A stretch of DNA of 64,000 nucleotides. Source: a virus. The notes beneath the pieces were generated by a model, which searched no databases, was not told the DNA's origin, and worked only from the letters and a program-made list of their open reading frames with translations. The stretch lies in the IMG/VR virus record IMGVR_UViG_3300035670_000033, positions 32,001 through 96,000 of that record; one strand, given 5' to 3'. Both the position numbers and the translations under genes were made by a program. Below are positions 46,147-64,000 of this stretch, one piece after another (the first letter of the stretch is position 1; every line of letters starts with the position of its first letter).

Positions 46147-46965
46147 TTAATTTCCCTCTTTTCTTCCTGTAACAATTATACGGAACGACTTTAAAGAAGT
46201 CAACTGTTCTGATAAAGATTTTTCGTTTGCCTTGTAGGTTTTGCTTATCTGCGGAGGCTCAATTGAGTCATATATCTTGGCAAGGTCGGCGAATACGGAG
46301 ACATCTATCGTTTCGGCTCCGTCCCCACCAGAGTCAATGGTTGTTCCAGTCCAGTCACCTGTAGCGAGTGCTATTTGAATTTGGTCTAGGTCTGCGACTG
46401 CTATCTGGTTTTCAGCCTTACCTCTTGCTGGCGCTTTAGCCATGTTTTCTGGTGTGTTGTCGTAGATATCAACAACATCAAGATAGAAGTCTTCTCCGTC
46501 AAGCCATCCGCCAATTCCGACTTCTCGTGCGCCTTCCTTCGGATTCAGAAATACTTCCTTACCATGAAATGCAAGCCAAGCCATTGTCGTTTTGATTGCC
46601 GAATCTTTGGGTTCGCCATTCTCATCAAAAACATCGGATTTTTTAAGTTTTACACCGTGTTTATTTCTTCCGATTGATATTCCAGTTCTAACATCGTCTG
46701 CAACAAGTTTGTCTACAGTGAATCCACCGTCACGACCTTTTTCAAGGATTGCTTTGATTCTTTTCTTTCTCTCTGGATCTGCTTTAACAAAAGACATTGT
46801 ACGCTTTTTTGTTGTTCTACGAACCATTTCGGCAGCCACTGGAAGAGGGACATTGTCTTCATCGCCGAGGGTAAACATTCCATCGCCATCTCCGTCTTTG
46901 GGCACTTTGTCGGAGGAGAAACCACCAATTGGTTGACCAAGTATTTTGTACAAAAGTTCGCTCAT
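46147..46965 (-). CDS. Head-module protein with DGDGDG...EDN tag and variable C-terminal domain
   Basis: LGQPIGG...DGDGDGMFTLGDEDNVP. Confidence 0.75.
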   Translation of the reverse strand: MSELLYKILGQPIGGFSSDKVPKDGDGDGMFTLGDEDNVPLPVAAEMVRRTTKKRTMSFVKADPERKKRIKAILEKGRDGGFTVDKLVADDVRTGISIGRNKHGVKLKKSDVFDENGEPKDSAIKTTMAWLAFHGKEVFLNPKEGAREVGIGGWLDGEDFYLDVVDIYDNTPENMAKAPARGKAENQIAVADLDQIQIALATGDWTGTTIDSGGDGAETIDVSVFADLAKIYDSIEPPQISKTYKANEKSLSEQLTSLKSFRIIVTGRKEGN

Positions 46966-47727: not shown

Positions 47728-48489
47728 CTAATCCTTGTCCTTAGAGTTCTTATATCGTTCAAGCATTCGTTTGCCTTTAGCGGCTAATTCCCTAGCATCA
47801 TCCGCATTCTGTGGAACTGGTTCACCCCAAGCCGCCGCTGAAAGAGCAAGCCGAGTTGGGCGACCCTTTTCATCTTTCATAGGACCAGAAGGATTGGTGA
47901 AGAACCGTGTAAGAAATGATCCCTTACGACGCATCTTTTCTGGTGTGTCAGCAGGACCCTTGACACCCGGCTTCAAATTGGATCCATCTGTTCTGTTGAA
48001 ATGCGCACGACCCGCTGCGGTTAAACCACCTTTAGGGTCTCTCAGTGGTTTGGCAGATTTCTCTTTGACGATCGGACCACCAGCAACCCACGCACGGCAA
48101 GTCCTTTTTGATGCACATTTGAAATCAAATGCTTCGCAATATCCAAGTTCGCCAGCGCTATCAATTGCTTCCCACTCATCCTGACGATCCCCGCCAGTTA
48201 CACCTTTATTGATGCAGTCTTTCATTGAGGGTGTTTGAATGAAAAGTGAACAGTTACCGCACAATTGTTTTTTAGCGGAAGCATTATCAACGTCCCACTC
48301 TTTTGCTAACTTCCCCCAATACTCTGTGTTTGGTTCAGAAGGGTTGAGCGGACCATACATTGCTGTCTTTATCGCTTTTCCTCTGTTGGCAAGGTTTACG
48401 GCAATGTCCTGTGTGGCTTTAGGGCAAGATTCTTCTGCCTTGACACGGATAGAAATCGGTTGACCGTTGATTAAATCGGTAAATTTCAT
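47728..48489 (-). CDS. Modular head-region protein with DUF6321-like C-terminal domain
   Basis: KSAKPLRDPKGGLTAAGRAHFNRTDGSNLKPGV...RRKGSFL.RF. Confidence 0.7.
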   Translation of the reverse strand: MKFTDLINGQPISIRVKAEESCPKATQDIAVNLANRGKAIKTAMYGPLNPSEPNTEYWGKLAKEWDVDNASAKKQLCGNCSLFIQTPSMKDCINKGVTGGDRQDEWEAIDSAGELGYCEAFDFKCASKRTCRAWVAGGPIVKEKSAKPLRDPKGGLTAAGRAHFNRTDGSNLKPGVKGPADTPEKMRRKGSFLTRFFTNPSGPMKDEKGRPTRLALSAAAWGEPVPQNADDARELAAKGKRMLERYKNSKDKD

Positions 48490-48513
48490 AGTTCCTTATT
48501 ATCCCACAAAAAG

Positions 48514-48555
48514 CAAAAACCCCGCCCCAACCTTTCGGCTAGAGCGGGGTTTTTG
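48514..48555 (-). terminator. Intrinsic terminator after the capsid gene
   Basis: CAAAAACCCCGC...GCGGGGTTTTTG. Confidence 0.85.
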
Positions 48556-48570
48556 TTAATTACTTAATGA

Positions 48571-49884
48571 TTAGGCTGATGGAGCCGCATCAAAACTTAC
48601 CTTCACGAACGACTCTGGTCGCTTCACAGCGAGAGCGAGGCGTTGCTCGGCAAGGATCACAATTGCGTTACGCACGAAGAAGTCTGCGTGCTGTTCGCTA
48701 ATGCGGATGCTTGGTGATTCACGGTCGTAGATTTGTGCTCCCGTACCGAATGCACCGATAAGTGCTGTACCTTCAGCAATTGCAGGGGTGTCCACAACTG
48801 GGATCCTCCACAACTTCTGCTCGCCACCCATTGCAACAGAGACTGCTACGACATAAGCGCCGTTGCCGTCCTTGCTGAGTTCAATGTCTTCCCAATCGTT
48901 CGGGTTAAGAACGATACCCGATGGCTCGTAGTAAGCCAAGAAGGAAAGGGTTGCGGCACGACGGATTGCGTCAGCCTTGGTGTCGCTCATACCAGCAGTT
49001 GCTGAGTACACGCCATCCGACCAGTTGTAGGTCTGTACGCCTGAGGTATTCAAGATACCTGTCAGGTTTTCGCCAGTTCCCGAACCGTTAAGGATTTGTG
49101 CATCTTCCTGCAAGCGGAGACCGTACATCAACTCGTTGTCAATGATTGAGCGCAGTTGTGGCTCATCAGCAAGAACATTGCGGTGTGCGGCTTCCCAGTG
49201 AGCCAAGGTGCGAACAGGAGCCTGCTCACCAACGAAGGTGAAAGACGACTGTGGCTTGGCACCGAATGCGGAACCCGAACGCTCAGCAACTGCTGCTGCG
49301 TTGTTGGTGAATCCCGTCATGCGGAAGTATTCAATGATCGCAGCAGTTGTGGTGCGACTTGGGAACAAGTCACGAACACGCTTGGTGCGCATTGGAGGGA
49401 TGACGATTGCATCGCGTTGAATGGTTCCAAACGAGCCAGGTGTACCAGTTGGGAGTGCCGAGTACAAGTCCTTCTGACTGTACACTTCGCTACCCGACTT
49501 GTATGGTGCTGGCATGTTTGCTGAACCGCTAGCCAAAAGGGACTTGAACTCTGCTGAAGCAAGGAATGCTTCACCGATGCTCTTGCGACCCATTGACTGA
49601 ACTACTTGCTGGATTTCCTGTGAAGCGTAAGCAGAAGCCTGTGCTACTGAATCCTGTGGCTCTGAAGCCCACTTGTCAGCATCACGCATTGACTCAAGGC
49701 TCTCAACGAGCGACTTGATCTCGCGGATATCTGCCATGTTCTTGTCAAACGCGGTCTTTTGTTCTGCGGATACGACTACGGTGCCGTCTTCAATTTTGAA
49801 GTTGTCGGCGATTGTCTTGTTTTCTGCCATCTTGGCGCGCATTGCACCTTGAAGTTCAGTTAAACGGCTGTTGTCAAATGACAT
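48571..49884 (-). CDS. Major capsid protein, HK97 fold
   Basis: Coiled-coil delta domain; E...KPQS, L.G.GTG..L.GIL, A...RPESF; ATG at 49884 with AGGAG RBS. Confidence 0.93.
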   Translation of the reverse strand: MSFDNSRLTELQGAMRAKMAENKTIADNFKIEDGTVVVSAEQKTAFDKNMADIREIKSLVESLESMRDADKWASEPQDSVAQASAYASQEIQQVVQSMGRKSIGEAFLASAEFKSLLASGSANMPAPYKSGSEVYSQKDLYSALPTGTPGSFGTIQRDAIVIPPMRTKRVRDLFPSRTTTAAIIEYFRMTGFTNNAAAVAERSGSAFGAKPQSSFTFVGEQAPVRTLAHWEAAHRNVLADEPQLRSIIDNELMYGLRLQEDAQILNGSGTGENLTGILNTSGVQTYNWSDGVYSATAGMSDTKADAIRRAATLSFLAYYEPSGIVLNPNDWEDIELSKDGNGAYVVAVSVAMGGEQKLWRIPVVDTPAIAEGTALIGAFGTGAQIYDRESPSIRISEQHADFFVRNAIVILAEQRLALAVKRPESFVKVSFDAAPSA

Positions 49885-50036
49885 GTTTTTCACTCCTAGT
49901 GAATTGGATTTGGTTGGTGATTACTTATGTTTCTTTATTGCAGACTTCGGTAAGCACCTAGTCCAGTTACTATTACTGTAATACGAGAATAACATCAAAG
50001 TAGTATTAGAAATGCAACCCCATATTTAACACTTGG

Positions 50037-51443
50037 CTATTTTGAACGGTATCTTTTAACCGCCTGTGGACAGCATCCGCCAGCGTATTTAATACCGTAT
50101 TCCCCTTCATCAAAACCAGCCCATTTTTTGGCTGTTTTACGGTTTTTCCATGGGTGGTCAATAGGCAAAAGATCATTATCTTCCGAATATTTTACATCTT
50201 TGGGTTTTTCCGAGTTCAGCAAAGACAGGAACTTTGAGACCCGCTTATTCGCTTCTTCCCGACCGCCGTCAGCAAAACCTCTAACGAACACAACCTTAAG
50301 GTCGCGAAGGTTGGTTTTGGCAGAAGTTTTTGCTTTAGCATTATTTTTGCGCACCATAACAGCGAGATTATTGATGTCTGTGCTTGTCACGGTTGGAGGC
50401 TTTTTCTTTGGCTTGGGTACACCTTTGTAAAAAAATATTCCGTCGTCCAGTACATCTTTTTGCGATCTTTTAGCCCCACGCGCAAGCATCACATCTCTCA
50501 CATTTAGTTCCTCTGGAGTAACTACGTAAGGAAGTTTCTCTGCGCGACCTACTTCGTTAATGTGTTGTTGTACTTCCTTGGGTGAAAGTTTATATTTGCG
50601 CGATGCGCGAAGGTATGCGAATTTTTGAATTCTGCGCATTTTTTTGGCGTATTCCTTGTCATCTTTGCTGAGACCTGAAGTTTTTACGATCTCATCAATT
50701 GATGATTTCCAATAATTCTTGACATCTTTTGCCTTGTCGTAATCTATTCGTGTTACAGAACGAGGTGCATTCGCTTCACGAGATGGGCTCTTGGGTGCAT
50801 TTTGCCTTCTTCTCCGAACCATTTCTGCTTGATGTTCAGCAAAACTAAGGCGCTGTTTCTTCGGCTTGTTTGCTTTTGGTTTTGGCACTTTTGCTACAGG
50901 AATATTATCTTCGCCATCTGCACCCGTAGCGAAACCATCTCCGTCTCCGTCTTCAAGAGCACCCATCCCACCGATCGGTTTGAACATTCTTCTATAACCA
51001 CTGATTGAACGACCAAGCGCTTTTTCGTCCATTTCTGACTTCTTCTTAAACCCTGAACCTTGGCGTCGCGGATTATTTATCGGACTGTTATCCCCGCGGA
51101 TACCTGTGACACGGTTGTAATCAGAAACATTTGTACAAGGAAGCCAAACAAGTTTTCCATCGCGTGCCGTGTAACGGCGAATACCTATACATCCAAGGTT
51201 GCGTGCACGAATACGGGCAGACTCGGGGTCACTGAAAGTATCAGGATCTGTGGAACGGCTAACAAAGTTAACGAAACCCTTTTCTTCTACAGGTTTCTCT
51301 AAAGTCTGCTTTTTATTCATGCCTTTGATGTACTCAGCAGGATTTTGATTTTTCACTATTGTAAAGTAATAAAAATCAGCCTTCTCATCAGGCGACAAGG
51401 TTTGTACGAGAATGGCTAATTCTCTTGATTCGGTAGGTGTCAT
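50037..51443 (-). CDS. Modular head-region protein (DUF3721-like, DGDGDG tag, DUF5824-like C-terminus)
   Basis: ARNLGC.G...WLPC; DGDGDGFATGADGEDNIP; LKVVFVRG...RV..FL...DNDLLP.DHP. Confidence 0.75.
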   Translation of the reverse strand: MTPTESRELAILVQTLSPDEKADFYYFTIVKNQNPAEYIKGMNKKQTLEKPVEEKGFVNFVSRSTDPDTFSDPESARIRARNLGCIGIRRYTARDGKLVWLPCTNVSDYNRVTGIRGDNSPINNPRRQGSGFKKKSEMDEKALGRSISGYRRMFKPIGGMGALEDGDGDGFATGADGEDNIPVAKVPKPKANKPKKQRLSFAEHQAEMVRRRRQNAPKSPSREANAPRSVTRIDYDKAKDVKNYWKSSIDEIVKTSGLSKDDKEYAKKMRRIQKFAYLRASRKYKLSPKEVQQHINEVGRAEKLPYVVTPEELNVRDVMLARGAKRSQKDVLDDGIFFYKGVPKPKKKPPTVTSTDINNLAVMVRKNNAKAKTSAKTNLRDLKVVFVRGFADGGREEANKRVSKFLSLLNSEKPKDVKYSEDNDLLPIDHPWKNRKTAKKWAGFDEGEYGIKYAGGCCPQAVKRYRSK

Positions 51444-52678
51444 ATGGTTTCCACAAATCCTTCTTCAACGGCGAGCATTGACCTATCCCATACAACAAAA
51501 AAATTGTCTTTAGTTAGAGCAGCCCTATGACCCTTAGCCGCGAAGAGACGACCAATATCGTCGTCTCCACCGAACTCACTTTTTCTACCGCTGTATCTCG
51601 CCTCAATCATTTCATCAAATTCTGATCTCTCTGTAACGGTGTTCGGGGGAATTGCCACCCTCATCACCGTTCCTTGCATCGCATTATTAATATAGGCGTA
51701 TTGTCTAGCGGTTCTAAGGTCATCCGTAAAATAGATTCCATTAGCCTGATGACCCATACCCGCCCAGTAGTCACCTTCCATAAACTGTTTTGCCAACTGT
51801 TCAGATGTTGACAATCTATTATCAGGGGTGCCAGGTAAATCGGCGTTAAAAACATCCTTAATGCCTCGGTAAGCAATCGTCCAACCCTCTTGTTCCAACT
51901 GTTTCATTTTTTCAGACGAGACAACTTTTGGCTTGCCCGTAAAACCCTGTTTTTCCGCAATTATTTCAAGTTGGACATCTCCATATTGCTTTCCAGCAAG
52001 TTTGTATTCATTCGTTCGCTTTTTTATTTCTTTGTCGCCCTCTGATCTAACTTCAATAAAACCCCTATAGTTTCCAAAGTAAACTTTCAAATCGTCCGTA
52101 ATGTCCTTGGCTCGCTTAAGTATTTTTTTAGTAGGGGCAGGAATATTGTCTTCTCCGTCAGGACCAGTAGTGAACCCGTCGCTATCGCCGTCAAACTCTG
52201 CTACACCACCAATAGGGCGACCTAAAGACTTGCCAGAAAACGAGCCAGTTACAAGCCCACCACCCGGCAAGGTTGCGATGCCAGTAATAGGTTTCTCGTC
52301 AAGGTTCTCCCAACCCCGTTTAGGTGCCTTGTGGTTGCAAACCGCATAATACTTTTTCCCTGCAAGCAGAACAGTTCGTACACCACCACAACCACGAGCC
52401 TTAGAAATAGCAACAGCATCAGCACGATTCTCATAATATGCATCAGACTTTGTTTCTAAACGCTTGGTGCGTTGAACCATTTTCGGCAAAGGTTTTTTAT
52501 TATTTGAAGCACGAACTTTTAAATACTCTTCTTTACCCTTTTTGATTCCCTCATATTCTTCGTGTGAGGCGCAAGGCATCCAACCAGCATCGGTCTCATG
52601 GGCTCCCTGACATCCAAGCATGCGGGCAACACGAAGCGCCTGATCCCTAGTGGTTTTATTCTTTTCGTCTTCAGACAT
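51440..52678 (-). CDS. Modular protein with two DUF3721-like repeats, DGDSDG tag and C-terminal ADP-ribosyltransferase-like domain
   Basis: ARMLGCQGAH...WMPC; AYRG ... G.GHQANGIYFT..L.TA.QYA...G.VMR. Confidence 0.7.
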   Translation of the reverse strand: MSEDEKNKTTRDQALRVARMLGCQGAHETDAGWMPCASHEEYEGIKKGKEEYLKVRASNNKKPLPKMVQRTKRLETKSDAYYENRADAVAISKARGCGGVRTVLLAGKKYYAVCNHKAPKRGWENLDEKPITGIATLPGGGLVTGSFSGKSLGRPIGGVAEFDGDSDGFTTGPDGEDNIPAPTKKILKRAKDITDDLKVYFGNYRGFIEVRSEGDKEIKKRTNEYKLAGKQYGDVQLEIIAEKQGFTGKPKVVSSEKMKQLEQEGWTIAYRGIKDVFNADLPGTPDNRLSTSEQLAKQFMEGDYWAGMGHQANGIYFTDDLRTARQYAYINNAMQGTVMRVAIPPNTVTERSEFDEMIEARYSGRKSEFGGDDDIGRLFAAKGHRAALTKDNFFVVWDRSMLAVEEGFVETI

Positions 52679-52941
52679 TATTGTTTTTCTTTTTTAGATA
52701 CTTTTTCAACCTCTGAAGCATATTCCATAGACATCGCGTACTGATCAAATAGTTCATCTATTTTGTCTGCATTCTCTTTGTTCATCAGATACGAGACCAT
52801 TGACTCAAGGTCACCATCTTTGCCATTTTCATTTGCATACCCGTAGGCAATGGCAATAATTTTAGAACGTGTCTCAGGGTTCTTTACTGTCGTTAGCAGT
52901 TGATTTTTGATTGAGTTTTTTTGTTCTGTTGTAAGTTTCAT
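52678..52941 (-). CDS. Small protein coupled downstream of the 1048-aa gene (putative immunity/partner)
   Basis: Translationally coupled. Confidence 0.7.
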   Translation of the reverse strand: MKLTTEQKNSIKNQLLTTVKNPETRSKIIAIAYGYANENGKDGDLESMVSYLMNKENADKIDELFDQYAMSMEYASEVEKVSKKEKQ

Positions 52942-55900
52942 TACGCCAACCTCGGTGGTTCCACCCGTATTCTAGGGCGAGCAATTTTTGGTTTCTTAGG
53001 GAGTTTCTGACCAATTTTTTGTTCAGCAAAAGATAGCGTTCCACCACCAAATCCAAGATTTGCTTTAAACCATTGTTTCACATATTCCATTTTTTCCCTG
53101 TCGCCAGTAGGATCATCCAAAGCAAAGATTATGTCTTGATGCTGATACTGCTTACCACCTCGCGCCTGTGCGAGAATTGATTTAATTCTCGCATATTCTG
53201 CGTCATTGTTTATCAATCCGCCAGCACCAAAATCCTCATAAAATTTGAGAGGTGACTGAAGCACCTGTAGGTCTCTGTCTGCCAAGCCATAGTTTCTTTT
53301 GAATCCAACACGAGCCCAAACATATTGTCCATCATCGGCTGCGTTCACCATCGCCTTTGTGACACCTATTTGCTTCAGGTAAAGAAACGCGTGCTGGTTA
53401 TAAATTGTTTGAATATCAGCGCCTCTATCTATTTTGCTTGTCACAAACATTGAATTTTGGCTTACCGTACCCTGCGATACGCTTACACTCCGAGACGATT
53501 TAGCGATTGCTGCTCTTATAACTTCACCGTTTGCGTTGATCTCGTCAAACGTAACCGAAATCTGAAACCCATTTTGAGGAGACACTGTTGCGGTAGCACG
53601 GTAAAGTTTCCCGTTCTTGCCTTCAATTCTTTGGTGGGAATAAGCCTGTTTCAAGTACTCTGCCTTTTGCGGAGCAGTGAGTCTTCCCCATTTTACGGGT
53701 GTCATGTCTTCATATGGTGCACCACCGTTTGGGTGCCGTTGCTTAAGATACTTAGCAAGTTTCCCTTGACGACGTTCAATCGCCTCGTTCACCTGATCAT
53801 TGATCTTCTTCGCTACATCTTCTGGAAGCGGTCTAGGAATATTTGTTGCATCTGGATTGAAAACAAAACCTTGTTTCCTTCTTTCTGATGCTTTCCGTAT
53901 TTCTGGTCCTAATGCTTCTATCAACTGAAGATGACCTTCATATTTGCCAATATCAGACTGTAATTGAGCAATTTTTTTCATTGTCTCAACACGGTTGAAT
54001 TCTTTTGCTTCTGGAGTATTTCCAATAGGTGAACGCATAAGTCTGAATTCTGCGCTTAGTTGTGTTTCTAATTCGGTAAGTTTGGTTCGCACACCCGCGA
54101 CACCACCTTGTGGTCTTACGTATCCGATATATTTTCTTTTTGCCTCGGTGACTAAAGCCGATACATCGGCATCGGGGTTTGCTCGGAGCAAATCAGCAAC
54201 TCTTGAAAGTTCTTTTTGAAAGTTCCGCACCGCTAGTTGGCGACCTTCATTTTGGTTGAACAATGCTTGATCGGCTAGTAATCCAAGTTGTCCCAAAAGT
54301 TTTGGATCTTGCATTTGAAGCAATACTTCTTCAATCAGATCTTCATTTTCTTTTTTGAATTTGGCTGCTTCCATCTTTGGTGGAACATGCTTCAGTTCGT
54401 CTGGAACATCTCGGATATCGCGTGGCGATGGGGTGTCAACACTATTAGCGATCGGAGCGTCAACTGGAGGTTCTCCAGTACGGTTGGCGTCATAGATTTC
54501 CTGCCATGCGTCCCTGTAGTCTTTAATATATGTTTTAATGCGGGCAATATTTATTTCCTCGTCTTGCCTTCGTTCAATGAAGTCATTGTCAGAAAGTTCA
54601 CCTCTAGCAATCGCTTGCTCTATACGCGCTATCCTTGCATCCGCTGCAACTATTTTTTGTGCGGCTTCAACCAATTTCTGTCCGCGTCCAGCGCCAATGG
54701 GTGGGAAGTTGGCGGGGTCATTGATGATCATTATCCTGTCATTTGGCATGACATCATTTAAAACATAACCTTCAAAGTCTCTATCGTTAAGAACTTCATT
54801 CAGGTTAACCCTTTGTCCTGCACCACGCGCTCTATCCGCTCTGGCTTGGCGCATTCTTTCCGAGTTGGCAGCGTTGTCACTGTTGCCGGGTTGTGGGCGA
54901 GCGGGAGATGCCTCTGGTTTTGGTTTTCTGCGTTTAGGTCCTGCTACGGCACGACGCTCTTCCGATTCGGCATCAAGTAGTGCACCAATATCGTTCCTGT
55001 CGGGGTTTGCCCTAGGGCGACGAGGTTTAACTACTTTTGGCTCAACAACTGAGCGTGGAGGCTGAAGACGCCTTACCTCTTCTTCCAACTTAACTATTTT
55101 TTCTCGTTGACGCCTGATTGCTTGTGGCGCCGCACTATTCTGTCGCATCATCTGCAACATGTCTCGTGCTTCGTTAAGATCACGCTCTGCTACTGCGAGC
55201 GGATCGGTCTCATTTGCTCGGCGTGTTGGTGCTTTAGGTTTCTTTGTTGCTTCAACTACGGCACGACGGCGACGGCGAGCAGGCGCTTCACCAGTTCTTG
55301 GTGCACCCGGCTGTTCAATTTCGCGTTGCATTCTTCTTTGTTCTGATTCACGAAGATTTCCTTCACCTCGTGGTCTTGCAGGTTGACGTCTGCGAGCAGG
55401 GCGTGCAGGAGCATTGCGTCGTCTTAGTTCCGCCATTACTCGTTTGTAATCGTCGCTGTCTCTTCCGCCAGTAGCGTTCTCTAATTCGTCGCGCATTTCC
55501 TCTAAAACCTCTAGAGGTTCTGCGGCGAGAAGATTTGCTTCGTCACGGGCAGGGCGAGCGGGTGCTTGTCGTCTGCGTTGCGGACGAGGTGCAGGTGTTA
55601 ACTCTCTAGGTGCTTCAGGTGTGTCAACCGACGGTGGTCGTGCAACAACAGTTCGCCTACGAGCGCCACGAGGACTAGGGGCATTCCCGCCATCCAGTCG
55701 CTCAGCAATACCACGTAAACCTTGCTCAAGACGACCAGCACCACCGCCTTGGGGGTTAAGTCTTGCAAGTATTCGGCGTTCACGACGAGCAATACGACGA
55801 CCACGGCGAGCATCATCAACATTTTCCAACCGTTGACCAATATCTGATATTTGATTAGCGATGCGTCGTGCGACCCCCCAACCGCAAGACCGACCAAAAC

Positions 55901-56087
55901 GATCTGTTATCTGTCCACCATACCGTGTCCCCGTTGGACAGCGCCAGCCTCCACGACGGTTAGTGCCGGGGATAGAAAGACTCGGATCCCACATGGCGCG
56001 AACAGCCTTGACTTCATAAGCAATAGTTGACGTGTTCCGTTCGCTAAGAAAAGATTTTGCCTTAAAGTCGGCGATATTCTGAAGCAT
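52941..56087 (-). CDS. Large modular protein: conserved Cys N-domain, Arg/Pro linker, C-terminal GNAT-like domain
   Basis: WDPSLSIPGTNRRGGWRCP.GTRYGGQITDRFGRSCGWG; C-terminal IGV....VNAADDGQYVWARVGF. Confidence 0.75.
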   Translation of the reverse strand: MLQNIADFKAKSFLSERNTSTIAYEVKAVRAMWDPSLSIPGTNRRGGWRCPTGTRYGGQITDRFGRSCGWGVARRIANQISDIGQRLENVDDARRGRRIARRERRILARLNPQGGGAGRLEQGLRGIAERLDGGNAPSPRGARRRTVVARPPSVDTPEAPRELTPAPRPQRRRQAPARPARDEANLLAAEPLEVLEEMRDELENATGGRDSDDYKRVMAELRRRNAPARPARRRQPARPRGEGNLRESEQRRMQREIEQPGAPRTGEAPARRRRRAVVEATKKPKAPTRRANETDPLAVAERDLNEARDMLQMMRQNSAAPQAIRRQREKIVKLEEEVRRLQPPRSVVEPKVVKPRRPRANPDRNDIGALLDAESEERRAVAGPKRRKPKPEASPARPQPGNSDNAANSERMRQARADRARGAGQRVNLNEVLNDRDFEGYVLNDVMPNDRIMIINDPANFPPIGAGRGQKLVEAAQKIVAADARIARIEQAIARGELSDNDFIERRQDEEINIARIKTYIKDYRDAWQEIYDANRTGEPPVDAPIANSVDTPSPRDIRDVPDELKHVPPKMEAAKFKKENEDLIEEVLLQMQDPKLLGQLGLLADQALFNQNEGRQLAVRNFQKELSRVADLLRANPDADVSALVTEAKRKYIGYVRPQGGVAGVRTKLTELETQLSAEFRLMRSPIGNTPEAKEFNRVETMKKIAQLQSDIGKYEGHLQLIEALGPEIRKASERRKQGFVFNPDATNIPRPLPEDVAKKINDQVNEAIERRQGKLAKYLKQRHPNGGAPYEDMTPVKWGRLTAPQKAEYLKQAYSHQRIEGKNGKLYRATATVSPQNGFQISVTFDEINANGEVIRAAIAKSSRSVSVSQGTVSQNSMFVTSKIDRGADIQTIYNQHAFLYLKQIGVTKAMVNAADDGQYVWARVGFKRNYGLADRDLQVLQSPLKFYEDFGAGGLINNDAEYARIKSILAQARGGKQYQHQDIIFALDDPTGDREKMEYVKQWFKANLGFGGGTLSFAEQKIGQKLPKKPKIARPRIRVEPPRLA

Positions 56088-56090
56088 GGT

Positions 56091-56408
56091 TTAAGCCTTA
56101 AAACTTTTTTTATTTGGAAGAGACTTAATTTGATTTTTATACATTTCTTCAGTTACTTGCCCATCAGAACTGTATTGTGCGGACATTGAATTAAGACGGT
56201 AAAGAATATATTCCATTCCGCTTCCCTCCAAAGGGATCTCGTTTCGTGCCGACGATTCTGAAAGAATTTCAATAAGTTGATCAACAAGTTCTTTATCGGA
56301 AGCGTGTATTTCTACAAGTCCATCAATATTTTTTCCAGCGCAAGACCCATTTACCTTGTTTGTAAATGGATCCATGAATTGACCTATAAAAAACTCTCTC
56401 ATGATCAC
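56091..56408 (-). CDS. Small protein coupled downstream of the 959-aa kinase-like gene (putative immunity/partner)
   Basis: Overlaps the upstream stop. Confidence 0.7.
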   Translation of the reverse strand: MIMREFFIGQFMDPFTNKVNGSCAGKNIDGLVEIHASDKELVDQLIEILSESSARNEIPLEGSGMEYILYRLNSMSAQYSSDGQVTEEMYKNQIKSLPNKKSFKA

Positions 56409-59284
56409 CTTTGGTTACTTGGAATTATGTTGACTATCTCATTTTCGGCGTTGCGAAGGTTTGCAAGACTTCGTACCATGCCATCATAAAGTGCTCCTGC
56501 TCGGGCTTTATTTGAGTCAGTCTTACTTACTTTTTGCAATGCGTCTGTTATGAATTGTTCACGACCGACAGCAAGTGTTTTTTCTGTTTGCACAACAACC
56601 TGTCTGTACACTTCTTGAATTCGCGCATAAGTTTCACGCCTTTGCGCGGCTGACATAGCGGGTAGTGCGGTGCGCATAGTGGCAAGAATGTCCGTGTCCA
56701 TACGAAAACCCCGTTGGTAACGATCAAATAGTCCTCCGTGATCCCTTCCAGCCCAACCCAAGTCCATCGGAACGACATGCGCTAATTTCTTGCCGTCTGG
56801 TAATTCCACTACACGACCCATACCGTTGCCTCCGTGGCGGTCGCTAACACCAAGAATATAGTTGGCTAGAACATTAGACAATCTTTCAGGAAGACCTTTA
56901 TCTGGAAGGGCATTCAGGGCTCCTTTGTTGAAATCGTAGCCACCAGCAGCACCGCCGATTACTGCTCCTTCAGGCACGTCGTTGTGTGCCAGAGGGATCA
57001 TGATGTAGGGGGTTCCTTTTCGGACTGTTCCAAGAGGCTTTCGTACATCTGCTTCAAGTTTACCGTCTTGAATTGCTCCGTCTTCCAAGATCCCTACAGC
57101 AGCCAAGTAGTTCCATCCAATGAGTTCGCCGACATTGTCGGCAGGTTTTGCAGCCTTGAAAACCCATCCCTGATTAGTTGGATTTCCATTTTCATCACGC
57201 AAAAAGTAAATTTTAGTTACACCTACAGCGCCACCGTTGGGTTGTACTTTTTTGAAACGCTTATTCGTGTCTCGTGGATCTGATGAAGCGTTTGCTTCTA
57301 TGGCAATGTGCATGAATTTTGCTGGAACCTTTTGTATGTCTCCACCATTTTTTATATGGTCAATCGCTTTTTGTTCCGTGTTAATTGTTCGGTCTTCTTC
57401 TGAAACAAATTTTCCAATTGGAGAATTCCGTCTATCTATCTTTAATTTGCCATGCGCATTTTTGCTTCTAGCAAATTTTCGGAAAGGAGATTTTTTTTGC
57501 TGTTTTGCTTGTTGCGCTTGCGGTGATGGTGGTGTCCTTGGCGTTGGTGGTTCAGGTGGTTCGCTATTTCCGTTGCTTAGATCCAAAAACTGTTGACTAA
57601 AATCGCGTAAGTAACGATTCAGTGACGCTTGACCCTGTGGACCTCGGTACTCTTGTTCTAGCGCGTCACCATCAACGATATTTCTGGCTAGGAAACCACG
57701 AAATTTTCCGCTTTCTTGTGGGAGTAATTCAATTTCCCAGTTTCCTTTTTTCCATCTAGTTGAACCATCAGGTTGGTTAATAGCGTCCCAACCTTCTCCA
57801 CCAAAATCGGGCATTCTTACATTTGCCCGTGCCGGTGCGCCTCCGTCCCCAGGTGTGACAAAACCGCGACCATCTGGTGAGCGTCGCGGTTGGCGTGCAG
57901 GGCGTGCAGGGCGTGCAGGTGCTGGCTCGGGAATATCATTCGCTTGTGGTTTGCGTGATGCGCTACGACCAGCACCCTGTGCTGTTGCTTGCCGACGGCG
58001 ACGACGGCTATTTTGTGGGCGACGATTACGAGGCGCTGGTGGTTCAAAATCTATTGGTGCTGAACGACCGTGTGCATCTTTCCAAGCATCGCGAAGATTA
58101 TTTTTGTTGATCTCGTACCATTCACGGCGAGTCAACATTCCTGCGTTCCCGCCACCTTCGCGAATTTCTCGTACTCGTTTAGCGTATTCACCATATTTTC
58201 GTAATACATACGGTTTGAAATCTTCTGTTTCACCAGCGTCGGAAGCATCTCTTGCGGTGAGAACATCAACATTTGCTGGTTGTGGTGCAACGCGCGGGCG
58301 TGCCTGTGGTCGTGCCTGTGGGCGTCGTTGTCCTGCTGGTGCTGGTCGGCGTGCAGGACGAGGTGTTGGTGCGGGTGTAGGCGCTGTTTCTGGTATTGCG
58401 TCACGACGACGGTTTCTCGGCACTCGTGCTGGTGCCTCAACTTCAGGTGTTTCGTCGTTGCGTCGTCCACCTCTATTGACTCTTCGGTTAATAGCACCCG
58501 CTAAACCTTCATTGTTTACCCTGTCCAACAAATTCCCTCGCCGTGGGGACTCACCTCCCTCAAGGCGATCAGCGATATTCCGCAGACCGCCTTCAACCCG
58601 ACCAGTTTCCGCAACTCCGCCAAGCCTTCTCATCATTCGTGCGTTACGGCGATCAAGACGACGCTTCCGTTTGTCATCATCTCGTTGTTCTAAGCGTTCG
58701 CCAATGTCAGCAATTTGGTTTGCAATTCGTCGCGCAACTCCCCATCCGCACGAACGACCAAAACGATCTGTTATCTGTCCGCCGTATCTTGTGCCTACAG
58801 GGCATCGGAAACCGCCACGGCGGTTAGTGCCGGGGATGGAGAGGCTTGGATCCCAAACTGCACGAACACCTTTGATTTCAAAATGCGCTGACGAACGAGT
58901 TTGGTCAGAAATAAAAGAAGATGCTTTAAAAGTCAAAACATTTTTGAACTCTTCGTTAGAAAACTCAGAAAGCAAAACTTCAGAAATAGATAAAACTGGC
59001 AGGTTTTTGAATTCCATCGGCTCACTTTGAATATGTGCAAGTGAAGCAACTTTTTTCTGAACTGCTGTTCCTGATGGGCTCGGACCTTCAATTATTTTGG
59101 ATGCATCCATTGACTGAACTAGTTCAGGCTTAGTGATTGGGGTGTCGGCGTATTCTTCGCGGAGTATCCCAACAAGTTCCTTTGCATCTTCCGTCATCGG
59201 TTTGAATGTGGATCCCTTGGGGGTCGTTGAAACAACCATAAATGGTGTGTTGTCACGGTTCTTGATAATGAAAACTAGGTTCAT
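56405..59284 (-). CDS. Large modular protein: extra N-domain, conserved Cys domain, C-terminal PI3/4-kinase/HipA-like kinase
   Basis: GWVFK, GELIG, LGVSDRHGGN (56825-56842), VPMDLG. Confidence 0.8.
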   Translation of the reverse strand: MNLVFIIKNRDNTPFMVVSTTPKGSTFKPMTEDAKELVGILREEYADTPITKPELVQSMDASKIIEGPSPSGTAVQKKVASLAHIQSEPMEFKNLPVLSISEVLLSEFSNEEFKNVLTFKASSFISDQTRSSAHFEIKGVRAVWDPSLSIPGTNRRGGFRCPVGTRYGGQITDRFGRSCGWGVARRIANQIADIGERLEQRDDDKRKRRLDRRNARMMRRLGGVAETGRVEGGLRNIADRLEGGESPRRGNLLDRVNNEGLAGAINRRVNRGGRRNDETPEVEAPARVPRNRRRDAIPETAPTPAPTPRPARRPAPAGQRRPQARPQARPRVAPQPANVDVLTARDASDAGETEDFKPYVLRKYGEYAKRVREIREGGGNAGMLTRREWYEINKNNLRDAWKDAHGRSAPIDFEPPAPRNRRPQNSRRRRRQATAQGAGRSASRKPQANDIPEPAPARPARPARQPRRSPDGRGFVTPGDGGAPARANVRMPDFGGEGWDAINQPDGSTRWKKGNWEIELLPQESGKFRGFLARNIVDGDALEQEYRGPQGQASLNRYLRDFSQQFLDLSNGNSEPPEPPTPRTPPSPQAQQAKQQKKSPFRKFARSKNAHGKLKIDRRNSPIGKFVSEEDRTINTEQKAIDHIKNGGDIQKVPAKFMHIAIEANASSDPRDTNKRFKKVQPNGGAVGVTKIYFLRDENGNPTNQGWVFKAAKPADNVGELIGWNYLAAVGILEDGAIQDGKLEADVRKPLGTVRKGTPYIMIPLAHNDVPEGAVIGGAAGGYDFNKGALNALPDKGLPERLSNVLANYILGVSDRHGGNGMGRVVELPDGKKLAHVVPMDLGWAGRDHGGLFDRYQRGFRMDTDILATMRTALPAMSAAQRRETYARIQEVYRQVVVQTEKTLAVGREQFITDALQKVSKTDSNKARAGALYDGMVRSLANLRNAENEIVNIIPSNQR

Positions 59285-59408
59285 TGTTTACTTTCCACAT
59301 TTGTGAAGGCATTGAGCAAGCCCTGTAAGTCTTGCGTCGCAATATCGCTACTGTAAAATGGTATCACTAACGGCAGATATCAAAATTATGACACTGTAAA
59401 CATATTAT

Positions 59409-59702
59409 TTATTTGTCTAATTTTTTGTGCCCTAATTGAATAAGAAAATTATCAATTTTCTCTTTGCTTGAACCCTCGTATTTTAATATTTCTGCATTGA
59501 GGTAAGAGTACCCATGCAACATGTTTTCAAGAGTCGCCATCTTGGGGGAATTCTTCTTCATAGTTAGGAAATGCTCATTATCTCGTTTGTCGTTATCGCG
59601 ATTTTTTGAGTAATAAGTGATAATCCCCTTATCGTCTTCCACCAAAACAATTGGGGAAGCCTGAACCAGTGGATCCTTAGAGGTGATGATTGCCGCTCTC
59701 AT
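59409..59702 (-). CDS. Small protein downstream of the 954-aa kinase-like gene (putative immunity/partner)
   Basis: Starts 5 nt after the upstream stop. Confidence 0.7.
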   Translation of the reverse strand: MRAAIITSKDPLVQASPIVLVEDDKGIITYYSKNRDNDKRDNEHFLTMKKNSPKMATLENMLHGYSYLNAEILKYEGSSKEKIDNFLIQLGHKKLDK

Positions 59703-59707
59703 GATAT

Positions 59708-62572
59708 TTACAATCCTAATAGCAAGTCGGCGATCCTTGATGGATCAACATCGGTCAAATATTTCATTTTCTTTTGTGGTCTTTCGCCAATTCTGACAAC
59801 AGCCTGATCTCCAGCCCTTGGATTCGGTGTTCCATCTCCGCCTGTTTTTAGAACATCATTAACCATATTCAAATATGGGTTTTTTCTTTCGGCTTCGCGA
59901 ATAGATTTCTGCACATCGGCAACCGCGGCTATTACCTCACGCCTACTCAGTCTCCCCTGTCTAACCTGTTCGCGAAGAGTTGAAAGCATGTCGTTTCGTC
60001 CACCACCGTAACTATCTCGTAGCCACCCTACAAAACCAGCGTCGTCGCCATCAAATGCTTCAAATGCTCTACCTCCCCAGTTGACATCAAAACCAAGAGA
60101 TGGGTCAATTGGAACAAATCGGAGTTTCCCGTTCGCGTCTGGCGCAACAAAAAAGTTACCACCGTGACGATCTCTATTAACAATTACAAAGTCCATTAAT
60201 GTCGCACGAACACGATCAGACGGCTTTATGTCGCCCATATTCGCAACGTCTCTTCCCAATCGCAGTCTTCCTTCAACATAGTTTCCTGCGTGTTCGTAAA
60301 CTATTGCGCGACCACCGCTATGTGGTACACCATTCCCGCCTTTTTGTTTGCCGTCTAGTCGCAAACCACCAACGGGCATGCCGAAACGACCTGCGAGATT
60401 ATTGCCGACCATTTCGTGAATATCTTCGTTTTCCGCCTGTGCACCAGCCTGATATTTAAGGAAATACTGTTTCCCTGTTACGGAATCCGTAAACATGTGC
60501 ATGTTGTCAGGGATCATTCCGTTAACTCCACCACCAGCATCCTGTTTGCTGAATCTATTCGTCGCACCATGTAACGCTTCTCCCAAGAATTCGTCTGGTA
60601 CGTCGGCTAAATCTCCACCTTGTTCTAGGTGAGCGATTGCTTGTCCCTTGGTGTCAATTCCTTTATTTCCCACAGGAACGCTTTTCACGTCAGGGAGACC
60701 ATCTTCTCCTTTGGAATTTAGTTTCTCTGGTGCGTGATCTTGCTTCGCTGAAGGTGGAGAAACATCCCAACCTCCTTCGGGCTCTGGTATTTCCGCTGGT
60801 CTATCAGGTGGGCGGACTGGAGGTTGTACTCGTGGGGCATTAGGGGCTTCAACATTGTTGTTGGCAACAACAGGAGGTCTTTGCCTGAAGGCAATATCCG
60901 CCTCAATTTCAACAGCCCTTAATTCAGCAGCGGCAACATTCTCTTTAATTTTTTCTTTTTGCGCCCATGATCGCAATAAATTCTCTCGGGCTTCATCTCT
61001 TTCTCTTTGATTTCCGTTTTTCTTAGAACGCCAGTCGTCGTATGCTTTATCAAAACCAGTTTGTGCCTGTTTCAAAAGGTCTTGATATTCATTTTTTTTG
61101 CCTAAAACTTGTTCCCTTGACAGGTTGCGCAAATTGTTGTAGGCGTTTGGCTTGTATCTTGCAACTTCATCTTTGACTATTTTGACCAAATCTTTATCTC
61201 CCGGCTGGTCAAACTCTGCATCTGGGTTTATGTCTCTTGCAGGAATCGGTGGTGGACCTGCTGGTCGTGCGGGTGCTTTTGGTGCGGGCGCTGGCGGTGC
61301 AGGCTGTGGCGCTCCTGCCTGTTGTGCAAATATTTGTTGGTTAACAAAATTGCCACGAGCATTACGCTTATTGTTGTCACCGTAATAGCGACCGAACCTT
61401 CTTTCTAGTTCGGCTCTCTCTTCACCTTCAGGGAAATCTGGTTTACGCCAATACGCATCTTCGGGTAGCCCGCGAAGATCACCGAAACGGTTACGAACAT
61501 TGCGAATAGAAGCAGCGTCTGGAACGCTTCCACCCAACTCGTCTGCTGTTGGATTCCATGCGGGTGGATCAGGAATTGGTGTTGATGGTTTCTGTTGTTC
61601 TGGCGGTTTTGGTGCAGGTTTTCTGCGTGGCACCTTCGTCGGTTCGGGTTTAGCACTGTCAACAAAATCTGCTTCAGGCTTTCTTCTTGCTGTTCGTTTC
61701 GCGCCCTGTTGTGCTGCGGCTCGTCGTCGGCGTCGTGGAGCATTCGGTCTTGGTGGTTCACCTGTACGCGGTGCGCCGGGTTCAACTAATTCTCGTTCCA
61801 TTCTTCGTGCTTCAGATTCGCGAAGGTTCCCTTGTCGGCGAGGTGCTTTTTTACCTCTACGATTCAGTTCCGCGTTAACTTTGTCTAGACGTTGCCGTGC
61901 GGTAGATCTTTGAACACTGACAGGGAGCATACCGATTCTTCCGTCATCACGAGGTTTGTCCACTGCGTCTCGCAGAATGTCAACTGCTCGTTGTGCGTCT
62001 TGATACTGTTTTTCTAGATCTTCATCACTCATAGTGCGAAGGTTCTCTACATATGGATCTTTGTCATCTCGTCTCGGAAGTGCGGGAATATCGCGAGTTG
62101 GCATTACTGGACGGGCTGGAGGTTGCGCAGGGATTCTTGGGCGTGCTGTTGGTCGTGCCTGTTGCGGAGCCTGTCCACCCTCAAGTGCTTCTGCAATATT
62201 TCTTGCACCACGCTCAAGAAAACCTGGCTTGTTCTGACGAGCCAACATTCGTTGTACACGAGCATTGCGTCTTGCCAAACGGTCGTTTCGTTTGCGGTCA
62301 TCAATGTTTTCTAAACGCTCACCGATATCTGCGATTTGGTTTGCAATACGACGTGCAACACCCCATCCGCATGAGCGACCAAATCTGTCGGTTATCTGTC
62401 CACCGTAACGGGTGCCAACCGGGCATCGCCATCCTCCGCGACGATTCGTTCCGGGGATAGAAAGACTCGGATCCCAAATCGCTCTAACGCCTTTTACTTC
62501 ATAACTGAAAGTACTGGATGTTTGTTCAGAGAGGAAAGTAAGAGCCTTAAAATTTACTTCGTTTTTGAGCAT
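59708..62572 (-). CDS. Large modular protein: conserved Cys N-domain, Arg/Pro linker, C-terminal PI3/4-kinase/HipA-like kinase
   Basis: YFLK, HEMVG, DFVIVNRDRHGGNFF (DRHGGN 60155-60172), PIDPSLG. Confidence 0.8.
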   Translation of the reverse strand: MLKNEVNFKALTFLSEQTSSTFSYEVKGVRAIWDPSLSIPGTNRRGGWRCPVGTRYGGQITDRFGRSCGWGVARRIANQIADIGERLENIDDRKRNDRLARRNARVQRMLARQNKPGFLERGARNIAEALEGGQAPQQARPTARPRIPAQPPARPVMPTRDIPALPRRDDKDPYVENLRTMSDEDLEKQYQDAQRAVDILRDAVDKPRDDGRIGMLPVSVQRSTARQRLDKVNAELNRRGKKAPRRQGNLRESEARRMERELVEPGAPRTGEPPRPNAPRRRRRAAAQQGAKRTARRKPEADFVDSAKPEPTKVPRRKPAPKPPEQQKPSTPIPDPPAWNPTADELGGSVPDAASIRNVRNRFGDLRGLPEDAYWRKPDFPEGEERAELERRFGRYYGDNNKRNARGNFVNQQIFAQQAGAPQPAPPAPAPKAPARPAGPPPIPARDINPDAEFDQPGDKDLVKIVKDEVARYKPNAYNNLRNLSREQVLGKKNEYQDLLKQAQTGFDKAYDDWRSKKNGNQRERDEARENLLRSWAQKEKIKENVAAAELRAVEIEADIAFRQRPPVVANNNVEAPNAPRVQPPVRPPDRPAEIPEPEGGWDVSPPSAKQDHAPEKLNSKGEDGLPDVKSVPVGNKGIDTKGQAIAHLEQGGDLADVPDEFLGEALHGATNRFSKQDAGGGVNGMIPDNMHMFTDSVTGKQYFLKYQAGAQAENEDIHEMVGNNLAGRFGMPVGGLRLDGKQKGGNGVPHSGGRAIVYEHAGNYVEGRLRLGRDVANMGDIKPSDRVRATLMDFVIVNRDRHGGNFFVAPDANGKLRFVPIDPSLGFDVNWGGRAFEAFDGDDAGFVGWLRDSYGGGRNDMLSTLREQVRQGRLSRREVIAAVADVQKSIREAERKNPYLNMVNDVLKTGGDGTPNPRAGDQAVVRIGERPQKKMKYLTDVDPSRIADLLLGL

Positions 62573-64000
62573 TTACGATTTCTTTCGCTCTTTCGCGAGG
62601 TCGGGTTTGATGAATGTTTCGTAAAGCCAGCGCGGAGCCTTTCGCTTGACACCATCAGTACCAGTGTATTCAACAAGTTGAAGTGCATCTGGAATCTCAC
62701 CACTGTCAACATTGAATTTGAATGCGCCTTCTGACGCGTTAGCAAAATCTTCAATATTTTTTATGATGTTGTCTTTGTTGCTTGACTCGGCAAGAGAGTT
62801 AATCATTCGCGGAAACTTTCGCTTCTCACCGATAGTGAAAGGACGTGATCGTTCAATACTGATGCTCACACCGTTGGGCGCAACGAAAGCAATTTTACTC
62901 ATTGAAGGACCACCCAATAGCGCTAGGTCATCAGCACCTATGTCAGATGGAAGTTGAACTGCGCGAACCATTGCACCGTCAACCATGTCAGGGTTCTCAC
63001 TGAAGGAACGCAAAACCGATGATGGAACTACAGGGCGAAGAACCACTCCATCTCTGCGGATCATTCGTCCTTCGCCTCGTGGAGCACCCTTCAAAAGACT
63101 CACCGCATCCGACACAGACTTGCCGAACCTATCTTTTTGGAAAGCACCTGTTCTTGGTATTTGCGCCATGCGTTGAATCTGTATGGTGCGCGTATTGCTT
63201 GGATTTCCTTCTAATACTTCAGAAAGGTTTTCTGCTCGTGCTTGTGGAAGTCGTGTGGTTGCCCCTCGTACCGCGCGAGCGGCTAGTGCGAGTGGTCCTG
63301 GTATTTCAAACAGTTGCGCACCACAGGTTGAAAAACGGTTGTCCGTGAATCGTCCACCATATTCAAAACCAGCAGGGCATCGTGCTTGACGCTTGCGATT
63401 GGGCTTTAGTCTACTTAACGCTCCACCGCCCCCACCGGGTACGAGTGCACCATAAACTCGTGAACGGATAGGTGATGTAAGTGGTGAAATGTTCCCCGGC
63501 GTTAGTGCAGAACCAACGGCTTGTGCCGCTCTGCCTGCCGTGCTTCCAGAACCTATAAGTCCTGCTTTCGTTTCCATGTCCTCTGCATCGTCTTTGCCGA
63601 CACGGTATCCACCACCACGTTTTTTATATTCACGAACAAGCCAAGCATTAGCGTAAGCAGATGGGTATACATTGAATTTCTTTTTTGCTTCTGCTTTGAC
63701 CCGTGCATAAAGTTCAGGGTCTGTGGGGATATTTTCGCTCTTGAATTCTTCTCCATCGGACTTAAATGTGGAGACATTGATCGGCTTGTTTTCTTCCCGA
63801 TCTCCTGTTGTTTCTGCTCGTCGTTTTCTGCGTACCGCTGAATCAATTTCTTCCGCAGACATTTTCATGGCGGTAGATTTCTTTACACACTTAGGGTATT
63901 TACCTGAATCTGCGTCCCCGCGACCGCAAGGTTCAAAACCGCCACCTTTTTTAGGGCGTGAAATGTCAACCCATTCTTCTTCAAACCATTTGCCCAAACC
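62573..64000 (-). CDS. Partial (5' end outside window) modular head-region protein with DUF5872-like modules and a divergent RCP-G-YGG-TD-CG motif
   Basis: KWFEEEWVDI...CGR...YPKC; TDPELYARVK.EAK..F.VYPSAYANAWLVREYKKRGGGY; RCPAGFEYGGRFTDNRFSTCG. Confidence 0.75.
   Translation of the reverse strand, partial: GLGKWFEEEWVDISRPKKGGGFEPCGRGDADSGKYPKCVKKSTAMKMSAEEIDSAVRRKRRAETTGDREENKPINVSTFKSDGEEFKSENIPTDPELYARVKAEAKKKFNVYPSAYANAWLVREYKKRGGGYRVGKDDAEDMETKAGLIGSGSTAGRAAQAVGSALTPGNISPLTSPIRSRVYGALVPGGGGGALSRLKPNRKRQARCPAGFEYGGRFTDNRFSTCGAQLFEIPGPLALAARAVRGATTRLPQARAENLSEVLEGNPSNTRTIQIQRMAQIPRTGAFQKDRFGKSVSDAVSLLKGAPRGEGRMIRRDGVVLRPVVPSSVLRSFSENPDMVDGAMVRAVQLPSDIGADDLALLGGPSMSKIAFVAPNGVSISIERSRPFTIGEKRKFPRMINSLAESSNKDNIIKNIEDFANASEGAFKFNVDSGEIPDALQLVEYTGTDGVKRKAPRWLYETFIKPDLAKERKKS

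Follow-up and report, generated by a model that had tools for sequence, protein, structure and literature searches.

What use does a phage have for two kinases encoded amid the genes for its head? The question is posed by a 64,000-nucleotide stretch of DNA, here called the window, which covers bases 32001-96000 of the virus record IMGVR_UViG_3300035670_000033 (138,071 bp, 97% complete by estimate). Two large genes on its minus strand, P0002 (59708..62572, 954 aa) and P0001 (56405..59284, 959 aa), end in a domain in which the original prediction, drawn from the letters alone, had recognized a PI3/4-kinase/HipA-like kinase, carried as a payload in a phage head module. Our analysis agrees with the kinase fold, though not with the family assignment, and finds each kinase gene directly followed by a small gene that tracks the kinase subtype. 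To a reading in which these kinases are made late, loaded into the capsid and carried to the host cell, with a cognate inhibitor for each of them, we give slightly better than even odds, roughly 0.55; in this reading we infer packaging, activity and substrate.

The predicted kinases and their common N-terminal module

As read from the open reading frame (ORF) and its translation, P0002 consists of an N-terminal module (residues 1-137, 62162..62572, with the motif RCPVGTRYGGQITDRFGRSCG at 62366-62425), a basic, Pro/Ala-rich and probably disordered linker (residues 138-619, 60716..62161) and a C-terminal atypical kinase domain (residues 620-954, 59711..60715). In P0001, a 112-residue N-terminal extension (58949-59284) precedes the module (58535-58948), the basic linker (57437-58534) and the kinase domain (56408-57436), all on the minus strand. 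The residues expected of a kinase are found where they had been predicted: the beta3 Lys in YFLK of P0002 (60455-60466) and WVFK of P0001 (57155-57166), the alphaC Glu in HEMVG (60404-60418) and GELIG (57116-57130), the catalytic loop DRHGGN (60155-60172 and 56825-56842) and the DFG-equivalent Asp in IDPSLG (60092-60109) and MDLGW (56753-56767), with a Gly-rich loop, GGGVNG, at 60518-60535 in P0002. In protein numbering these are K706, E720, D801...N806 and D823 in P0002, and K710, E720, D815...N820 and D841 in P0001. The DFG position reads D-P-S-L-G or D-L-G, such that the Asp and a later Gly are kept and the Phe is not.

The C-termini of the two proteins are 24% identical across ~310 residues (E 2e-10), and 72 metagenomic homologues were found for that of P0002. 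Across 28 aligned sequences there is no exception to D-R-H-x-x-N, to the alphaC Glu or to the Asp of the DFG position, and hardly any to the beta3 Lys. When four kinase subtypes of this phage and its relatives are aligned, all of K, E, DRHxGN and D are kept without change. As the C-termini are homologous and the catalytic residues conserved across relatives, the motifs are not there by chance; a pseudokinase reading was considered and rejected, the catalytic residues being invariant or, for the Lys in the 28-sequence alignment, nearly so. Both kinases are predicted with high confidence to be catalytically active. Different substrates had been proposed for them; what the data show is two different subtypes with unrelated partner proteins. 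A segment ahead of the catalytic motifs, AIAHLEQGGDLADVP in P0002 (60596-60640) and AIDHIKNGGDIQKVP in P0001 (57323-57367), is shared as originally noted, but it does not stand apart as a pre-kinase module: it is a helical part of the kinase domain, modelled with a predicted local distance difference test score (pLDDT) >90, in which the family has its own conserved N-terminal signature, AIxHxxxGGDLxxVP.

The kinase-like fold that had been predicted is borne out by the modelled structure. The AlphaFold2 model of P0002 residues 620-954, built on a 28-row alignment, has a pLDDT of 88 and a predicted template modelling score (pTM) of 0.89, and the order of secondary-structure elements around its conserved residues is that of the classical kinase core. 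In VIA-align the top 42 matches of this model are all kinases, with Z scores from 15.5 down to ~7. CotH is best (Z 15.5, root-mean-square deviation 4.1, 253 residues aligned, 13% identity), followed by PI4KIIalpha (Z 13.9), CtkA (Z 12.4), PI4KIIIbeta (Z 12.3), MavQ (Z 10.2) and HipA/HipT (~Z 10); ATM, actin-fragmin kinase, Vps34 and Fam20 are further neighbours. Foldseek against the PDB returned kinases only, with PI4KIIalpha on top. The top match in BFVD (template modelling (TM) score 0.69, E 3.6e-12) is a protein of an uncultured phage that UniProt names PI3/4-kinase catalytic domain protein, and a structure search of the ESM Atlas gave HipA_2 (TM 0.56-0.57) and PI3_PI4 neighbours.

Sequence searches gave a different picture. 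Neither kinase has a Pfam match at E<=0.1, nor any match in PHROGs or NCBIfam. Specifically, neither P0001 nor P0002 is matched by the PI3/PI4-kinase catalytic domain profile PF00454, by the HipA profiles PF07804 (HipA_C) and PF20613 (HipA_2) or, despite the best structural score, by the CotH profile PF08757; there is also no HipA N-terminal domain and no helix-turn-helix (HTH) partner. Searched against PDB sequences, neither protein found a match by phmmer, while the family profile gave sub-threshold Fam20 alignments over the catalytic loop (E 0.07-4). PADLOC had no match to the kinase proteins and one, at noise level, to the small protein s97 described below. Among 185,579 prokaryote genomes (one per species), the kinase had two weak matches, both in metagenome-assembled genomes, and a search for stand-alone short homologues returned mostly contig-end fragments. 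Because profile and PDB sequence matches are lacking, we file the domain as an undescribed clade rather than as a member of the HipA or PI3/4-kinase families; the membership that had been proposed finds no Pfam or NCBIfam match, and CotH is structurally closest. By its model, the domain is a clade of the protein-kinase-like superfamily with a PI3/4-kinase-type DRHxxN loop, not yet described in profile libraries. With CotH (5jda), PI4KIIalpha (4hnd), CtkA (3akj), HipA/HipT (5k98, 7ab3) and Fam20 it has the bilobal fold, the beta3 Lys, the alphaC Glu, a D-x-H-x-x-N catalytic loop and the metal-binding Asp in common, and with the PI3/4-kinases also the DRH..N loop, at 7-13% identity between the atypical kinases and the P0002 domain. 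What sets it apart from known atypical kinases is its own helical segment and its fusion to a carrier encoded in a phage head operon.

This carrier is strongly conserved. Outside the kinase motifs the two proteins had been described as highly diverged, which is wrong for their N-termini: the 137-residue module, residues 1-137 in P0002 and 113-250 in P0001, is 70% identical between them (E 1e-56), and the same holds for a third tandem gene, P0074 (52941..56087, minus strand, 1048 aa), which joins the module to a non-kinase C-terminus. The module has a pI of 11 and a core motif, RCPxGTRYGGQITDRFGRxCG; C50, P51, G53, G57, G58, T61, D62, R63, G65, R66, C68, G69, R74 and R75 do not vary. Searched for at E<=0.001 among 1.8 billion cluster representatives (50% identity clusters), the module is present in at least 257 clusters of viral proteins, in chains of 800-4,528 aa and always near the N-terminus; in the best 150 of these, the kinase-domain profile matches 81 proteins, usually at the C-terminus. 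Two kinase domains in tandem occur in one chain in P0193, P0203, P0205, P0207 and P0213, and the longest protein with the module is P0150 (4,528 aa). The module is absent from the 185,579 prokaryote genomes and from 50,697 phage records, and by these searches the system seems confined to non-integrated viruses. The AlphaFold2 model of the module is poor (pLDDT 62, pTM 0.29), as might be expected if the module folds only within an assembly.

The linkers that follow are basic in both proteins, with a net charge of +19, 13.7% Pro and a pI of 9.9 in P0002 and a net charge of +29 and a pI of 11.2 in P0001, and are poorly conserved among relatives in length and sequence. Antisense to the P0001 linker runs an open frame of 391 codons (57855-59030, plus strand), probably a by-product of Arg/Pro/Ala codon bias and no gene. 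The 112-residue extension of P0001 is a mobile module: in many relatives it precedes the RCPxG module, which then lies at about residues 100-260, and in one related locus (L023:11314-12651) it heads a gene like o412, described below, which has no RCPxG module.

Small partner genes and exchange of C-terminal domains

The gene s97 (59409..59702, minus strand, 97 aa), encoding the cognate partner and predicted active-site plug of the P0002 kinase, starts 5 nt past the P0002 stop; the gene for the cognate partner of P0001-type kinases, s105 (56091..56408, minus strand, 105 aa), has a 4-nt overlap with the P0001 stop. Likewise s87 (52678..52941, minus strand, 87 aa) is coupled to P0074, and wherever a related locus spans this junction, it comes after a P0074-type C-terminus. 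The starts of the small ORFs thus fall between 4 nt before and 5 nt after the stop of the preceding large gene. In related loci, an ORF of 60-150 aa lies directly downstream of 44 of the 45 kinase-ending genes, the exception being truncated at a contig end. A homologue of s97 follows every P0002-type kinase in these loci, while s105 is found only after the P0001-type kinase (loci L010, L018, L023 and L026) and is otherwise replaced by other small ORFs. Altogether the partners form eight unrelated families that track the kinase subtype: kinases whose partners belong to one family have a median bit score of 186 to each other, against 44 where the partners are of different families. Homology of s97 to s105 and to the N-terminal extension of P0001 was considered and rejected (hhalign probability 0.1% in both cases), and no similarity of s97 to HipS or to any solved chain was detected.

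For the P0002 kinase domain and s97, complex prediction gave an interface score (ipSAE, interaction prediction score from aligned errors) of 0.85, while none of three controls scored above 0.00. Of 80 solved complexes 58 attain this mark, as do 2 of 110 mismatched pairs, a calibration that is rough here, where own alignments were used. The runs have at least 91% of their contacts in common, and the pLDDT of the partner is at least 87. The kinase is predicted to be contacted at its Gly-rich loop, at the beta3 Lys (K87 of the domain, K706 of the protein), at the catalytic loop (182-189, or 801-808) and at the metal-binding Asp (D204, or D823); on the side of s97 the interface is made by the N-terminal strand and an H-G-Y-S-Y loop, with contacts at residues 12-16 and 62-72 and with G64, S66 and Y67 nearly invariant. 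The prediction supports binding, and its pose fits an active-site plug or pseudosubstrate, while a true substrate is also possible. The small ORFs very likely encode cognate binders. s97 and s105 had been proposed to rescue toxicity of the kinases; as partners they hold up, being conserved cognate ORFs, the first of which is predicted to bind the active site of P0002.

Both kinase genes belong to the head module, as predicted: on one side of them lies the gene of the prohead protease, on the other that of the major capsid protein. The genes on this strand run in the order portal with MuF, S78 protease, o493, o562, o571, P0002, s97, P0001, s105, P0074, s87, o412, o468 and capsid protein. Among 24 related IMG/VR loci, most of those that extend over the whole block conserve this arrangement, at capsid identities as low as ~70%: protease, o493, o562 and o571 are followed by a module-kinase gene and a small ORF, an extension-module-kinase gene and a small ORF, a gene joining the module to another enzyme and its small ORF, and then o412/o468 and capsid. 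In the most distant loci, L030 and L031, similarity is restricted to the protease, o493 and the kinase domains. The second gene of the array carries at least three different kinase subtypes at its C-terminus in different phages. The C-termini behave as exchangeable domains on a common N-terminal module, in keeping with their description as payloads.

The non-kinase payload is less clear. The C-terminal ~290 residues of P0074 contain a GQYVWARVGF-type segment and have no Pfam match; an ESM Atlas feature search led to unnamed clusters and to one cluster with GNAT in 20% of its members (score 0.91), so that this C-terminus may be an acetyltransferase (GNAT) payload, which we regard as a lead only.

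Exchange extends to a second carrier. Two genes upstream of P0002, just past the right edge of the window, lies o562 (L005:614-2302, equal to G000:C1:96614-98302; 562 aa), with a conserved N-terminal region of ~206 residues and a C-terminal DUF3626 of the SopF type (PF12294, E 6e-10). SopF is an ADP-ribosyltransferase. DUF3626 is a domain of this Salmonella effector (PMC6682159), and in most sister phages its place at the C-terminus of o562 is taken by a kinase-like domain. Since the same o562 N-terminus bears either DUF3626 or a kinase-like domain, cassettes are exchanged on this carrier as well.

The head block ends with the gene for the major capsid protein of HK97 fold (48571..49893, minus strand; PF05065, E 5e-46; phrog_10). 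Immediately 3' of it lies a terminator-like hairpin (48514..48555, minus strand), a 19-bp stem followed by a T run, which has by far the longest stem on the coding strand within 48000-64000, the other terminator-like sites having 5-7 pairs. That this strand has just one long-stemmed hairpin, placed behind the capsid gene, agrees with late transcription as a single unit. A promoter scan was uninformative, with fewer sigma-70-like sites than in shuffled sequences.

Where the kinases may act

By its Pfam and PHROG matches the phage, an uncultured one from a lake, is a myovirus, with tail sheath, tape measure protein, HK97-type capsid protein, portal plus MuF and S78 prohead protease. Since it has two genes of the WhiB family (PF02467, 57 and 55 bits), one at 34421-34615 of the window (plus strand) and one to the left of the window (G000:C1:30857-31048), its host is taken to be actinobacterial. 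Freshwater actinophages that encode whiB and cysH are known from lake metagenomes, and this phage fits among them (PMC10914622); a PAPS (3'-phosphoadenosine-5'-phosphosulfate) reductase gene is also present in its genome (L006:2732-3865). The nearest GenBank matches of the capsid protein are those of Gordonia phages, at ~46% identity over the full length, and neither the region by megablast nor P0002 by tblastn matched any of 50,697 phage records, even at E<=1.

In the reading that we favour, P0002 and P0001 would be synthesized late, alongside the head proteins, and their common N-terminal module would carry them into the procapsid, with the basic linker stretched along the DNA in the head. 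Entering the next actinobacterial host with that DNA, the kinases would phosphorylate their targets there ahead of any phage gene expression, for takeover or counter-defence. In the producing cell, each kinase gene would be translationally coupled to its small cognate gene, and the conserved G-Y-S-Y loop of s97 would silence the P0002 kinase from within the catalytic cleft. A wider proposal, in which a whole lineage of lytic freshwater actinophages uses the module as a tag to load exchangeable enzymes with private plugs, this kinase clade being the most frequent cargo, all to be ejected with the DNA, is put forward tentatively, at somewhat less than an even chance.

How does this compare with known systems? 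T4 Alt travels in the phage head and enters the cell along with the DNA, and as would be the case here it modifies many host proteins at the start of infection; it is, however, an ADP-ribosyltransferase and not a kinase. We know of no experimental demonstration of a head-packaged kinase, and found no report of a virion-packaged phage kinase in the literature. In HipBST, HipS blocks HipT by a residue inserted in the kinase active site, reminiscent of the ~100-residue protein predicted here in the active site of a kinase with a HipA-like fold, but s97 lacks detectable similarity to HipS, its gene follows that of the kinase, and HipB is missing. The T7 kinase gp0.7 disarms bacterial defences by pervasive phosphorylation (PMC13645617) and is likewise a phage enzyme that modifies many host proteins as infection begins; in contrast to the scenario above, it is an early gene product and not a virion protein, and it is unrelated in sequence to the kinases described here.

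Closer in genetic organization are two groups of phage proteins. Polyvalent proteins with ADP-ribosyltransferase, kinase and GNAT domains are predicted to be packaged in the capsid; like the proteins described here they are large, encoded near portal and head genes, predicted to be delivered with the DNA and similar in their enzyme repertoire (PMC5512222). However, they combine 2-15 effector domains per chain, whereas here a tandem array provides one enzyme per protein, rarely two kinases. Their kinase, moreover, is a truncated Ser/Thr/Tyr type without C-lobe, found in prophages of Verrucomicrobia and Bacteroidetes, in contrast to the full bilobal DRHGGN type of this phage, and neither the RCPxG module nor cognate small partners form part of their description. 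MuF toxins resemble the array in their conserved N-terminal head module, variable C-terminal enzyme, downstream immunity-like ORF and location in the head block (PMC5576092), and fusions of MuF with VIP2-type ADP-ribosyltransferases are predicted virion components in lytic actinophages (PMC7302621). Yet the carrier here is not MuF: P0001 and P0002 have no PF04233 domain, and in this phage MuF is fused to the portal. MuF toxins are also reported only from temperate phages and prophages, whereas our module occurs in none of the 185,579 prokaryote genomes, and a kinase is not among their described toxin domains, occurring on MuF proteins only as a structural neighbour. In structure searches, similar kinase folds turned up on portal, MuF 'head morphogenesis' and ADP-ribosyltransferase fusions elsewhere among phages, for instance in Mycobacterium phage Onyinye and in the Gordonia phages GodonK and Sixama; the haloarchaeal tailed viruses HHTV-1 and HSTV-2 have matching proteins too.

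The kinases could instead serve assembly, acting in the producing cell on phage proteins as CotH does in spores, with nothing delivered to the next host; the basic linkers, a scaffold or the small partners could be their targets, and head assembly or DNA condensation the process controlled. CotH, which phosphorylates basic disordered spore-coat proteins, does rank first among the structural matches (Z 15.5), the kinases described here are joined to long basic and probably disordered linkers and co-transcribed with head-assembly genes, and the partner offers a conserved Ser/Tyr loop to the catalytic loop much as a substrate would. We nevertheless consider a role in assembly unlikely, as such a function should be conserved, whereas sister phages swap kinase subtypes, put DUF3626 in place of a kinase and vary the copy number. 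Eight unrelated partner families are also a better fit to cognate inhibitors than to a single assembly substrate, and the predicted interface buries the ATP-side Gly-rich loop and beta3 Lys in addition. Phosphatidylinositol is made by many Actinobacteria. With the host indicated by the two WhiB genes, it would be the candidate substrate if these were PI4K- or MavQ-like kinases of a host lipid or metabolite, as the DRHxxN signature of PI3/4-kinase catalysis, the rank of PI4KIIalpha (top in Foldseek, second in VIA-align at Z 13.9), the Z score of 10.2 for MavQ and the UniProt name of the closest BFVD relative might suggest. However, a substrate class cannot be assigned from the fold alone, PF00454 does not match, and matches as good or better come from protein kinases (CotH, CtkA, actin-fragmin kinase and HipA), which makes a lipid or small-molecule substrate an improbable choice, a shade behind assembly.

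The least probable alternative is that the genes are HipA-style toxin-antitoxin or polymorphic toxin-immunity cassettes, serving competition or exclusion, for instance by killing cells or rival phages without the immunity gene, and that their site in the head operon is incidental to delivery. A kinase with a tightly coupled small protein at its active site does recall HipT and HipS, given the match to HipT/HipA at ~Z 10, and swappable C-termini with matching downstream ORFs are a hallmark of polymorphic toxins (PMC5576092, PMC3482391). Yet neither a HipA N-terminal domain nor a HipB-like HTH protein is present, Pfam gives no HipA match and PADLOC none above noise, and the partner gene lies downstream of the kinase, where hipS lies upstream. 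The absence of the module from prokaryote genomes means that there are none of the prophage or chromosomal copies expected of toxin-antitoxin systems or temperate-phage toxins, and the strongly conserved module that all the enzymes share speaks for a trafficking step common to them.

Delivery from the capsid, though preferred, has several points weighing against it. No cultured relative was found, as tblastn searches of the 50,697 phage records with the module and the kinase domain gave no match at E<=1, and packaging is inferred. The module, itself poorly modelled, matches neither MuF nor any known head-targeting domain, and a place in the head operon means that genes are expressed late together, not that their products enter the head. 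The inhibitor role derives from one in-silico complex, predicted from own alignments, and a substrate or a packaging chaperone could adopt a similar pose; the complex is that of P0002 with s97, the pairing of P0001 with s105 being drawn from synteny. Finally, with the lipid kinases PI4KIIalpha and MavQ among the close structural neighbours, the substrate may be protein or lipid.

If capsid delivery is nonetheless true, these would be the first virion-delivered phage kinases, and would bring the effector-immunity logic of polymorphic systems to strictly lytic phages. A kinase already in the capsid would act from the onset of infection, while that of T7 first needs transcription and translation. 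The locus would also offer a compact candidate pair of kinase and inhibitor from families without prior description, a candidate capsid-loading tag for bringing foreign proteins into phage heads, and a view of how cassette exchange varies the host-takeover tools in phages of abundant freshwater Actinobacteria. Without packaging, there would remain a new atypical kinase clade with its cognate small binding proteins, which is useful but ordinary.

Neighbouring genes

Directly upstream of P0002, o571 (62573..64000, minus strand, 571 aa) runs off the window; it contains a DUF5872 segment and a diverged form of the module motif, CPxGxxYGGxxTD...CG (63320-63379). Further upstream, the portal protein carries its fused MuF domain (L005:6294-8504; PF04860 and PF04233), and the S78 prohead protease (L005:4102-6231, 709 aa) has ~450 extra C-terminal residues that may act as scaffold. 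No tRNAs were found within the 64-kb window. A metallo-phosphoesterase gene is found elsewhere in it (25970-26803, minus strand; phrog_1649, E 2e-39).

On the other side of the array, o412 (51440-52678, with DUF3721) and o468 (50037-51443) have short segments in common with each other and with o272 (46147-46965), which lies downstream of the capsid gene; all three are on the minus strand. In sister phages they are fused or rearranged differently, in variants of 379 to 877 aa (loci L014, L017 and L018). By these sequences, modularity extends to this section of the head block as well.

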